Below, one piece after another: positions 39,406 through 41,995 of a stretch of 48,054 nt of DNA. Position 1 is the first letter of the stretch. Every line of letters starts with the position of its first letter. The stretch lies in the IMG/VR virus record IMGVR_UViG_2563366844_000004, one strand, 5' to 3'. This DNA comes from a virus. Taxonomy: Duplodnaviria > Heunggongvirae > Uroviricota > Caudoviricetes. Position numbers and translations under genes: made by a program. Under the pieces are notes generated by a model. It did no database searches and was not told the DNA's origin. It saw only the letters and a list, made by a program, of their open reading frames with translations.

Positions 39406-39828
39406 TTAATGAACAATGACAGAATCGTCGGAAGACCCGCCGCCGCTGAAATGCGCTTTCCGGTAAACGGCTTGGACTGCATCATCATGCGCATCAATTG
39501 CCGTACTTAACGCTTCCTGCGCCGCCAGTAATGCACGGCGTTCCAGGGTATCGAAGATGCAGAGTCGGTGACGCAGCTCGCGCGGAAGGATTGCCAGAAT
39601 TGCTGGGATCAGCTTCTGAATTTTTTCCCTTTGCGCATTCGTTTCACCTTTCAACCAACGGTGATAGATATTCTGCTGATTGTTCCAGTCCTTGCCTGGA
39701 ACCAGGGGCAATTCGCCGCCCCCCTGGCGCAGATATTCTTCAGTAATTGCATTGGCTACCCATGCCTGCCCTTTTTCGGCTGCCAGGGCAAACAACACCG
39801 ATTCGATGTGCTCATGCTTGATTTTCAT
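39406..39828 (-). CDS. ydaT: YdaT-like protein
   Basis: 140 aa ORF between the Cro-like ydaS and the O-like gene. Confidence 0.7.
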   Translation of the reverse strand: MKIKHEHIESVLFALAAEKGQAWVANAITEEYLRQGGGELPLVPGKDWNNQQNIYHRWLKGETNAQREKIQKLIPAILAILPRELRHRLCIFDTLERRALLAAQEALSTAIDAHDDAVQAVYRKAHFSGGGSSDDSVIVH

Positions 39829-39850
39829 GAATCATTTGCCTCTTGATGTT

Positions 39851-40147
39851 TCAGGTATGATCAAATGAGGATTTGTTACTGTCATTTAGTTGCTTCACTG
39901 ACATATTCTGCGAACAACATGCCGAACGTCGTAAATATGACCAGTCAATATCAGGACGAAGTTCTTCGCACAGCACCTCACCTCTTGTTGCACGTTCAAT
40001 TGCTGGACATCTCTCGGCAGGCAATTGACGTACCCCTTTGATCCATTGATTTACGCTTGGAGGTGATACACCTAAAAGCCTAGCCATTGCTGTTTGCCCA
40101 CCGACAACAGCACAAGCTTGCTTGAATGAATAGTTCTCTTTTTTCAT
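39851..40147 (-). CDS. ydaS: YdaS-like HTH protein (Cro-position)
   Basis: 98 aa, HTH-like QTAMARLLGVSPPSVNQWIKG; divergent from repressor gene across an operator-containing intergenic region. Confidence 0.75.
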   Translation of the reverse strand: MKKENYSFKQACAVVGGQTAMARLLGVSPPSVNQWIKGVRQLPAERCPAIERATRGEVLCEELRPDIDWSYLRRSACCSQNMSVKQLNDSNKSSFDHT

Positions 40148-40175
40148 CGAATGAACTCCAAAAACACACAGAGAT

Positions 40176-40248
40176 ATTAGGCGACGCCTAATACAAATGT
40201 CAATAGGCTATGCCTAATACAATGAGAGTAGGGATTGCCTAATGCAAT
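40176..40248. promoter_or_regulatory. Operator cluster (three palindromic sites) in the racR / ydaS divergent promoter region
   Basis: ATTAGGCGACGCCTAAT (about 40176-40192), AATAGGCTATGCCTAAT (about 40202-40218), ATTGCCTAATGCAAT (about 40234-40248); shared half-sites ATTAGGC / GCCTAAT. Confidence 0.55.
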
Positions 40249-40270
40249 GAGCATAGGAGAATATTAAGCA

Positions 40271-40747
40271 ATGCTTAGTGGTAAAGACTTAGGCCGAGCG
40301 ATAGAGCAGGCCATTAACAAAAAAATCGCATCGGGATCCGTCAAATCAAAGGCGGAGGTCGCACGCCACTTCAAAGTCCAACCACCATCAATCTATGACT
40401 GGATTAAGAAAGGCTCCATAAGTAAAGATAAACTTCCAGAATTATGGCGTTTCTTTGCTGATGTTGTTGGTCCAGAGCATTGGGGGCTTAACGAATACCC
40501 CATACCAACCCCCACCAATCCAGATACAAAAAGTGAACTTTTAGATATAAACAACCTTTATCAAGCAGCCTCTGATGAAATAAGAGCGATTGTAGCTTTC
40601 CTGTTATCTGGAAATGCTACAGAACCAGATTGGGTTGACCACGATGTTCGCGCCTACATAGCAGCGATGGAAATGAAAGTGGGTAAGTATCTGAAAGCTC
40701 TAGAATCTGAACGGAAAAGCCAGAACATCACAAAAACTGGAACTTAA
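40271..40747 (+). CDS. racR: Prophage repressor RacR-like (CI-position HTH protein)
   Basis: 158 aa, N-terminal HTH (SKAEVARHFKVQPPSIYDWIKKG), divergent to ydaS, flanked on both sides by operator-like palindromes. Confidence 0.75.
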   Translation: MLSGKDLGRAIEQAINKKIASGSVKSKAEVARHFKVQPPSIYDWIKKGSISKDKLPELWRFFADVVGPEHWGLNEYPIPTPTNPDTKSELLDINNLYQAASDEIRAIVAFLLSGNATEPDWVDHDVRAYIAAMEMKVGKYLKALESERKSQNITKTGT

Positions 40748-40823
40748 ACTTATATGGTCTGACGGAAAACTCCTGGATTCCGTTATTTAACCCCCCCATC
40801 ACTTTCTCCAGTCGCCATCACCT

Positions 40824-40884
40824 ATTAGGTTACGCTTAAAACATTAGGCATAGCCTATTGACAATCAATTAGGCATTACCTATA
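40824..40884. promoter_or_regulatory. Second operator-like cluster downstream of racR (OL-like)
   Basis: ATTAGGCATAGCCTATT (about 40843-40859, exact reverse complement of the second OR site) and ATTAGGCATTACCTATA (about 40868-40884), plus ATTAGGT half-site at about 40824. Confidence 0.45.
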
Positions 40885-41055
40885 GTTCCAGCATACCACC
40901 CACCCCGCCCCACAGAACGCCAGGCAATACTTCGAGTTACCAGGCAGTGGTCAGGGGTTAAGTAGCCAGCCCGAGGCGTATGAACATGACGGCGGGATTC
41001 AAATTTTGCAGTGCAGCAGTTAGTTCCGCCACCCGGCGTTAAGGGGAGAGATAAG

Positions 41056-41190
41056 ATGGTGCATTACGAAGTAGTTCAGTATTTGATGGATTGTTGCGGT
41101 ATCACTTACAGCCAGGCTGTGCAGGCTTTACGTAGCAACGACTGGGATCTCTGGCAAGCAGAAGCCTCTATCCGCAACAACAAGATGTGA
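41056..41190 (+). CDS. ydaG: YdaG-like small protein
   Basis: 44 aa: MVHYEVVQYLMDCCGITYSQAVQALRSNDWDLWQAEASIRNNKM; below track cutoff, read directly from sequence. Confidence 0.7.
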   Translation: MVHYEVVQYLMDCCGITYSQAVQALRSNDWDLWQAEASIRNNKM

Positions 41191-41200
41191 GGTGCGAAAA

Positions 41201-41353
41201 ATGCAAAAAATCGACCTCGGCAATAACGAATCCATGGTGTGCGGCGTGTTCCCTAACCAAGATGGAACGTTCACTGCTATGACGTATACCAAAAGCAAAA
41301 CATTTAAAACAGAAACAGGCGCACGTCGCTGGCTTGCCAGAAATACTTGCTAA
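41201..41353 (+). CDS. ydaF: YdaF-like small protein
   Basis: 50 aa: MQKIDLGNNESMVCGVFPNQDGTFTAMTYTKSKTFKTETGARRWLARNTC; read directly from sequence. Confidence 0.7.
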   Translation: MQKIDLGNNESMVCGVFPNQDGTFTAMTYTKSKTFKTETGARRWLARNTC

Positions 41354-41773
41354 TCCATTATTTGGATTAATTCAATATTCTCGCTGTAGGGGTATAGCAG
41401 AAACCACCAAAGCCCGGAGGTGGTGAAATAAAACCGGGCACAACACGAAGGCGCATTTCCGATATCCATAAAGAGTCGGTCTTGTCTGTTAAATTTAAAT
41501 GGTGGGAGTGCGCCTCCGGTTGTGGATAACAACACTGCTATGTGTAGTCTTGGCGGCATCAGTTTTTTCTTGAAGTTCGACTGATGCCCGCCCTTTTTAA
41601 AGTGAATTTTGTGATGCGGTGAATGCGGCTAAGCGCACGCGGCACAGTTAAAAGTCATGTTAGTCCTTATTGGTTTGGGTGGGAAAGCCGACTGTAATTG
41701 TTAACTGGTTGCAGTCACCTGGAGGCACCAGGCACCGCATCAACAAAGTTCATTTGTAAAAATGGAGATAATT

Positions 41774-41995
41774 ATGATTGCACATCACTTCGGAACTGAT
41801 GAAATACCACGTCAGTGTGTGACTCCTGGTGACTATGTTCTTCATGAAGGCCGGACATATATTGCCTCGGCAAACAATATTAAAAAGCGAAAACTTTATA
41901 TTCGTAACCTGACCACAAAAACATGCATTACTGACTGCATGATTAAAGTCTTCCTCGGTCGTAATGGTTTACCTGTAAAGGCGGAGTCATGGTGA
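41774..41995 (+). CDS. kilR: KilR cell division (FtsZ) inhibitor
   Basis: 73 aa from [54 protein letters not shown]... Confidence 0.9.

Follow-up and report, generated by a model that had tools for sequence, protein, structure and literature searches.

Among systems studied by experiment, the sister prophage CP-933P comes closest to the downstream part of the Rac immunity region. Reporter assays placed its early-left promoter, PL933P, and operators OL1–3 behind the repressor operon (Jurenas 2021, PMC8630535). PL933P is repressed both by PaaR2, which forms an octamer, and by YdaS, and the two proteins have footprints in common (PMC8630535). The Rac locus resembles CP-933P in its chassis, with a YdaS-like Cro, a YdaT-like CII and an octameric repressor, in a predicted PL whose −35 and −10 hexamers copy those of PR, and in operators located behind the repressor operon. 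The two differ in that CP-933P has another repressor and another motif (GTTTAGTAA-type 18-bp repeats), carries three OL operators, and has its paaA2-parE2 toxin-antitoxin pair between the repressor gene paaR2 and PL.

For Rac of E. coli K-12, in which RacR is among the few essential transcription factors (PMC11014345), the upstream side is well described. Three GCCTAA/TTAGGC repeats, three complexes in EMSA, enrichment in ChIP-qPCR and repression of a reporter were reported (Krishnamurthi 2017, PMC5700373). DNase I footprints gave an ATTAGGC monomer motif and (T/A)TAGGC-N3-GCCTA(T/A) operators, the last of which lies over the racR ATG, and primer extension mapped PydaST (TTGACA / TAATAT) and three racR promoters, one of them leaderless; racR is not repressed by YdaS (Negri 2022, PMC9638921). 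RacR was found to be an octamer by size exclusion, which was assigned to "four inverted repeats" upstream; its N-terminal fold is CI-like, its C-terminal domain is unrelated, and its regulon was described as not characterised in detail (NAR 2023, PMC11014345). YdaT is analogous to CII; a YdaT-box spans the ATG of ydaT, and a promoter resembling PRE lies within ydaS (NAR 2025, PMC11879457). In K-12 with reduced RacR, ydaG, ydaF, kilR, ydaE and racC go up 40–70-fold (PMC6765115), and ydaST, recET, xis and int also rise. Publications on K-12 already cover both the upstream operators and the RacR/YdaS/YdaT circuit (PMC5700373, PMC9638921, PMC11014345), and the upstream half of the present locus is therefore not new. 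Sites or a promoter downstream of racR find no mention in the Rac literature searched, a body that excludes the 1990s Rac papers and the older sbcA papers.

We analysed a stretch of 48,054 nucleotides, the window, from a tailed-phage record. Its right half matches the deposited genome of phage vB_EcoS-683R6 at 99.9% identity. A 2.1-kb segment around racR agrees fully with E. coli 266917_2 (100% identity) and at 97.3% with K-12 strains. The calls of racR on the plus strand and of ydaS and ydaT on the minus strand are correct. Gene racR (40271–40747, +) encodes a prophage repressor of 158 residues, named RacR in the identical and the 97%-identical E. coli records. Gene ydaS (39851–40147, −) encodes a Cro-like HTH protein of 98 residues (Pfam YdaS_toxin 2.9e-31, P22_Cro 3.6e-9; PHROG 35), and is separated from racR by 123 bp. 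Gene ydaT (39406–39828, −) encodes a CII-like regulator of 140 residues (Pfam YdaT_toxin 1.2e-11; PHROG 163, "CII-like transcriptional activator", 1.4e-37). A YdaT-box, ATGATT-N6-AATCAA with the ydaT ATG within its spacer, can be read at 39818–39835 on the minus strand and matches the footprinted box of K-12 (PMC11879457). The genes ydaT, ydaU and ydaV lie to the left of ydaS; ydaG, ydaF, kilR, ydaE, racC and recE lie to the right of racR. By annotation, ydaG (41056–41190, +) and ydaF (41192–41353, +) are the first genes of the early-left operon, and PHROG 14709, PHROG 751 and Pfam DUF1391 were matched in the stretch 41056–41353 that they occupy. Between ydaF and kilR there are also a diverged DicF-like sequence and an STnc100-like one.

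This is the same element as K-12 Rac: racR is divergent from ydaS-ydaT, the three proteins match those of K-12 and the gene lengths are identical, as are the ATTAGGC half-sites, the PydaST hexamers and the YdaT-box. The present prophage is full-size and has decayed far less than that of K-12: it retains terminase, head and lysis genes as well as a DUF1627 gene of full length. The first-pass annotation had pointed to attachment to apparently intact replication genes as its distinction. That difference was rejected, as ydaU (858 nt) and ydaV (747 nt) are likewise intact in K-12. The same annotation had described racR-ydaS-ydaT of K-12 as behaving like a toxin-antitoxin-like essential repressor circuit, of which the repressor circuit stands and the toxin-antitoxin label does not fit the anatomy. 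The label is disputed, a published letter having argued for prophage immunity (Jobling, PMC5917428), and the immunity reading fits the anatomy better. The arrangement is not that of a type II toxin-antitoxin pair, for racR is divergent from ydaST and its product acts as a transcriptional repressor; a Cro-like YdaS and a CII-like YdaT are equally at odds with the label.

RacR of the window is 99–100% identical to that of the Escherichia loci. In Pfam it gives a single sub-threshold HTH_17 match (18.7 bits, the cut-off being 27), and an S24 peptidase domain was not detected in that search; relatives were found neither in PHROG nor in PDB at E up to 1. Judged by its sequence, RacR is outside the CI/LexA family, which combines HTH_3 with an S24 peptidase, though it is CI-like in its working.

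The ydaST promoter, the analogue of PR, is on the minus strand with TTGACA at 40203–40198 and TAATAT at 40179–40174, separated by an 18-nt spacer. It shows 10/12 consensus matches in a promoter scan of 39800–41400, and its hexamers are those of the K-12 promoter that was mapped by primer extension and mutated (PMC9638921). Four palindromic sites overlap PydaST and the racR start, and correspond to the footprinted K-12 operators. OR-a (40176–40192, ATTAGGCGACGCCTAAT) is a perfect palindrome covering the spacer and the −10 of PydaST; it falls inside a K-12 DNase I footprint, and the variability of its core half-sites is 0.000 among 54 unique Escherichia sequences. OR-b (40202–40218, AATAGGCTATGCCTAAT) abuts the −35. 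OR-c (40227–40243, AGTAGGGATTGCCTAAT) is within the racR promoter region, and OR-d (40263–40279, ATTAAGCAATGCTTAGT) overlies the ATG of racR and the start of its leaderless transcript. Similar palindromic operators thus overlap divergent promoters of the PR and PRM type, as in a lambdoid immunity region. The 123-bp intergenic region is 96% identical to that of K-12, with eleven substitutions almost all in linkers and spacers and the half-sites unchanged. Three palindromes had been claimed for the racR/ydaS intergenic region, and the motif statistics below confirm them at 40176, 40202 and 40227. The count was one short, since the copy over the racR start codon, 40263–40279, had been missed; it is the published O3 (PMC9638921, 2022), counted as the fourth of "four operators" in later papers.

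The operator consensus is ATTAGGC-N3-GCCTAAT, a palindrome of 17 bp. The annotation had called for a search of the palindrome across the prophage, and such a search finds the motif strongly enriched and almost confined to the flanks of racR. With up to 3 mismatches, ATTAGGCNNNGCCTAAT has 9 matches in the 48-kb window against 2.1 expected, a number reached by none of 100 shuffles, and seven of the nine are at 40176–40279 and 40824–40884. With at most 1 mismatch there are 3 matches (40176, 40202 and 40843) against 0.01 expected. The 750 bp of 40150–40900 hold 7/9 of the TTAGGC/GCCTAA hexamers of the window, where 0.03 would be expected. A weight matrix built from the four upstream sites alone gave 21.4 bits for 40843, level with the upstream sites, and 15.0 for 40868, the next, which is below them; 40824 scored 12.7, not above the best chance match (13.4 at 1408).

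The downstream pair is located 96–137 bp past the racR stop codon. OL-2 (40843–40859, ATTAGGCATAGCCTATT) is the exact reverse complement of OR-b, and OL-3 (40868–40884, ATTAGGCATTACCTATA) always lies 25 bp from it, in the distant homologues described below as well. Two further copies downstream of racR had been noticed before, one of them as exactly reverse-complementary to a site upstream; both are real, and the correspondence was understated, as 40198–40218 and 40843–40863 form a perfect 21-nt inverted repeat that includes the TTGACA −35 hexamer. The enrichment and clustering of the motif, the matrix scores and this inverted repeat confirm the three upstream and two downstream copies of the annotation, to which the fourth upstream copy is added. 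A doubtful third downstream site, OL-1? (40824–40840, ATTAGGTTACGCTTAAA), has 3 mismatches. As an operator it is unsupported: its matrix score is at chance level, its variability is that of the background, and the distant homologues lack it.

Two sigma-70-like sites stand out in 39800–41400, PydaST and its mirror. The mirror, at 40858–40886 on the plus strand, is the best of the region, with 11/12 matches: TTGACA, a 17-nt spacer, TATAGT, and a predicted start near 40893. It is directed away from racR, toward ydaG, ydaF, kilR, recET, xis and int, and is predicted from its sequence to be a promoter of the PL type. OL-2 abuts this promoter, overlapping its −35 by 2 bp, and OL-3 fills the spacer and overlaps the −10. 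The placement is that of OR-b and OR-a on PydaST, and RacR probably binds both OL-2 and OL-3. The region is 99% identical in K-12, and the operator pair and the promoter are present in both. A second operator cluster behind the repressor, on an outward early-left promoter, is thus seen by sequence and comparison.

Between racR and the pair there is a candidate weak terminator hairpin at 40760–40785 (+), ACGGAA...TTCCGT followed by UUAUUUAA. Its fold is −11 kcal/mol with z = −1.7, and its counterpart in locus L003 is ACGGGAA...TTCCCGT, a paired insertion that preserves the stem. Its role as a terminator is tentative. As the left operon is read in the same direction as racR and the hairpin is weak, the sites might chiefly be a protein roadblock or terminator against read-through from racR into the early-left genes, rather than promoter operators. 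The OL-2 palindrome was also flagged as terminator-like, on the minus strand only. The sites sit, however, on a near-consensus promoter just as OR-a and OR-b sit on PydaST, and a roadblock role would add to the operator function, not replace it. We regard a role chiefly as roadblock as improbable, and read OL-2 and OL-3 as operators of the predicted PL.

The palindromes on one or both sides could be used chiefly by YdaS, the Cro analogue, instead of RacR, considering that PaaR2 and YdaS both repress PL933P in CP-933P with common footprints (PMC8630535). Yet RacR itself gives footprints on identical half-sites in K-12 (PMC9638921). Use by both proteins is the norm in lambda, and would fit assignment of the sites to RacR as well. 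Predominant use by YdaS seems about as improbable as the roadblock.

Conservation was examined within Escherichia as variability per core position in 54 unique Escherichia-type sequences. The four OR site cores have variabilities of 0.000–0.015, OL-2 0.002 and OL-3 0.012, and the predicted PL hexamers 0.006 (−35) and 0.003 (−10). The comparison values are 0.080 for non-operator intergenic DNA and 0.062 for the stretch from the racR stop to OL, so that OL-2 and OL-3 vary 5–30 times less than adjacent DNA. OL-1? shows 0.073, equal to non-operator DNA.

Homologues of RacR extend the comparison to other genera. Those of Mixta, Morganella and Proteus are 56–62% identical to RacR, and that of Achromobacter, with 365 residues, has the N-terminal domain alone in common. 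All four keep a downstream pair, ATTAGGCxxxGCCTAT-TGAC(A/T)-N-ATTAGGxxTTxCCTAAT-AT, spaced 25 bp centre to centre and located about 60–130 nt past the repressor stop. The pair sits amid unrelated flanking DNA, with ORFs of the same strand after it, and TTGAC(A/T)-17-TAATAT stands where the predicted PL stands in Rac. In two of the six distant loci, Klebsiella sp. (L013) and Pigmentiphaga (L015), no downstream pair was found within the DNA up to 1.5 kb past the match. In nearly all RacR loci compared, racR is flanked by a pair of the composite TAGGC-N3-GCCTATTGACA, one copy on the minus and the other on the plus strand.

These comparisons bear on the possibility that the downstream copies have no function and are left over from a duplication that inverted the OR-b/−35 segment. 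The perfect identity over 21 nt could stem from recent copying. A leftover would hardly be expected, however, to keep the pair, the 25-bp spacing and the promoter hexamers in four other genera amid unrelated flanks, or to vary 5–30 times less than adjacent DNA within Escherichia. This explanation is disfavoured and we consider it highly improbable. The preferred reading, that OL-2 and OL-3 are functional operators, agrees with the layout like that of lambda cI which the first-pass annotation had suggested: the strong promoter is mirrored, the pair is conserved in four genera, and it is within an exchanged unit.

The exchanged unit is evident from prophages with the same chassis and other immunities. 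Their homology to the window is lost at 39834 and regained at 40893–40898 (41020 for L006), and the resumption at 40893–40898 coincides with the predicted +1 of PL. Three other immunity types each have a repressor of their own, flanked on either side by distinct repeats, which shows that repressor and operators move as a unit, a single cassette of specificity. The alternative cassette in the Rac chassis (L004 and L005) has HK022-like, GTAC-type operators flanking its repressor. These recall HK022, the repressor and operator sequences of which are unrelated to those of RacR. Since HK022-type operators occur in the same Rac chassis, the cassette behaves as a classical exchangeable imm region. 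The interval that had first been delimited matches this natural cassette, OL and PL included, because the homology breaks at its borders. Gene ydaT sits outside the swappable part, with the YdaT-box at the right border. Very probably, 39835–40892 constitutes the immunity cassette of a lambdoid prophage of the Rac type, controlled by RacR on both arms and laid out as cro-OR-cI-OL/PL.

The likeness to lambda is extensive. Both have a divergent repressor/cro pair, a leaderless repressor mRNA and an octamer-forming repressor. Palindromic operators of 17 bp, about 24–26 bp apart, overlap PR, PRM and PL in both, and past the repressor gene a second operator set lies on the early-left promoter. The differences are that RacR is no sequence relative of CI, with no S24 peptidase domain detected, that YdaS does not repress racR (PMC9638921), that Rac has four OR and two OL sites and lambda three and three, and that OL is about 0.65 kb from OR in Rac but 2.4 kb in lambda, Rac being without rexAB-like genes in between.

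The proposed mechanism is as follows. RacR dimers bind the 17-bp ATTAGGC-N3-GCCTAAT palindromes; in K-12, binding at OR and repression of PydaST and of racR's own promoters have been shown. On OR-a and OR-b, RacR covers the −10, the spacer and the edge of the −35 of PydaST, the promoter that leads to the replication genes ydaU and ydaV. On OR-c and OR-d it overlies the promoters of racR and their leaderless start, resulting in negative autoregulation. On OL-2 and OL-3 it would occlude the PL analogue, in a mirror arrangement of OR-a and OR-b, and this promoter is expected to drive the early-left operon of ydaG, ydaF, kilR, racC, recE, recT, ralR, xis and int. With OR and OL both covered by RacR, the loss of RacR would thus open both arms at once. 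The rise of the left-arm genes upon RacR loss could also be partly indirect, via YdaS or YdaT.

The conserved 25–26-bp spacing may allow pairwise cooperation of RacR dimers. Lambda repressor dimers cooperate pairwise at OR1 and OR2 in this manner. One RacR octamer may further link the OR and OL pairs over about 640–690 bp, and by analogy an OR-OL loop held by the octamer is possible. We hold it somewhat less than an even chance that the octamer bridges OR-a/OR-b and OL-2/OL-3 in a loop of about 650 bp and, at the same time, that the shared PL leader is a cis-acting control element of the early-left operon. To the contrary, and with a similar chance just short of even, the downstream sites may repress PL alone, with no loop between OR and OL and with the RacR octamer wholly on the four upstream operators. 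The octamer was assigned to the four upstream sites by its authors (PMC11014345). The distance between OR and OL, 591–641 bp among the homologues, is also not conserved in helical phase, and phasing as a sign of looping was rejected on this ground. Against confinement to the upstream side, the distant homologues that have the pair possess three upstream and two downstream sites. The fourth upstream site of Escherichia resembles a duplication of a 25–26-bp unit, and as the distant homologues have three sites, "four sites upstream" is not a general requirement of the octamer. The lambda CI octamer pairs with an OL, and so does PaaR2, the other octamer former.

The predicted PL transcript leader extends from about 40893 to 41055 (+), and its 5′ part of about 85 nt (to about 40980) is nearly invariant. 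This 5′ part is common to phages and prophages of several immunity types and opens with a C-rich, G-poor run. ORFs of at least 20 residues are absent from the conserved 5′ part; one of 20 residues is at 40980–41042, in the variable 3′ part, and a small ORF in the conserved leader was rejected. The Rfam search of the leader gave no match. A stable fold is not predicted for the leader (z +0.7; z −0.5 for a 168-nt stretch), and compensatory changes were not seen across 12 sequence clusters. HK022 has put RNAs after PL, to which the Rac leader bears no convincing likeness: some vague words are common to it and putL/putR, a stable fold is lacking, and a put-like antiterminator RNA is not supported.

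The downstream OL/PL half appears to be an expected lambdoid feature, well supported by comparison and apparently unreported for Rac in the papers searched. The paradigm is unchanged; a lambda-like detail, ordinary in kind, is added to it. The precise borders 39835–40892 of the Rac-type exchangeable immunity cassette are useful in genome annotation. A further pair of operators, placed on a strong promoter that points outward, would directly explain the joint rise of kilR, recET, xis and int with ydaST when RacR falls, and the OL pair invites another interpretation of the RacR octamer. If true, an octamer loop around racR would tie the silencing of the two early arms to the autoregulation of racR, and the PL leader of these lambdoid prophages, which have no N, might serve, for instance, as an entry site for Rho or an anti-termination site. 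Mutations of the sbcA type are the classical recET-activating mutations, and the predicted OL/PL indicates where they might map.

The racR region lies in a full-size Rac-type prophage inserted at ttcA, which carries terminase, head and lysis genes, two tRNAs and trkG; about 19300–48054 of the window corresponds to coordinates 1–28755 of locus L002. An iteA/iteS anti-phage pair is flanked by replication genes on one side and by DUF1367, DUF1364 and DUF1133 genes on the other. L010 (JARKOR010000130.1), a contig of 5.2 kb assigned to a 'Candidatus Nanosynbacter' bin, also has a racR region of the E. coli type, 99% identical; the contig is almost certainly contamination introduced by binning.

The YdaT-box ATGATT-N6-AATCAA (39818–39835, minus strand), which covers the ydaT ATG, falls exactly where the immunity cassette has its right recombination border. 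The 30 nt of 39805–39834 are retained even in phages Tritos and Evi, despite different neighbouring genes.

Four operators precede racR in the Escherichia loci, at −95, −69, −44 and −8 from the ATG, versus three (−68, −43 and −8) in Mixta, Morganella, Proteus, Klebsiella, Pigmentiphaga and Achromobacter. Comparison of 40196–40245 with the distant RacR-homologue loci L011–L016, at about 1430–1475, suggests that the extra Escherichia unit arose as a tandem duplication of 25–26 bp, comprising an operator plus its linker.

Directly 3′ of racR is a candidate weak terminator hairpin (40760–40785), ACGGAA...TTCCGT followed by UUAUUUAA. The stem is kept in the 87%-identical group, where it reads ACGGGAA...TTCCCGT, with a paired insertion.

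K-12 Rac carries sieB between ydaF and kilR, whereas the present prophage does not have sieB. Two sub-threshold Rfam matches fall between ydaF and kilR here, a DicF-like sequence at 41539–41593 (34.4 bits against a gathering score of 48) and an STnc100-like sequence at 41595–41781 (37.4 bits against 47). Since L003, L098 and L099, relatives with other or diverged immunity, harbor full-scoring DicF (62–76 bits) at the equivalent relative position, the Rac-type version found here looks like a DicF that has diverged.

A non-coding leader (40893–41047) separates ydaG from the predicted PL start, and its 5′ segment of about 85 nt (CCCACAGAACGC...GAGGCGTA) shows almost no variation. Copies of the segment with 85–89% identity follow the repressors of at least four immunity types, namely Rac, the alternative HK022-like type, phage Tritos and phage Evi. 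The 2.1-kb query around racR has matches in 3604 E. coli genomes, and the rows sampled suggest that most of these also match this segment. The leader core contains no ORF of 20 or more amino acids, and searches of the leader found no Rfam match, stable fold, covariation or clear likeness to HK022 putL or putR. The leader opens with a G-poor, C-rich run (ATACCACCCACCCCGCCCCACAGAAC), and it may serve as a Rho entry site or as some other element controlling transcription elongation.
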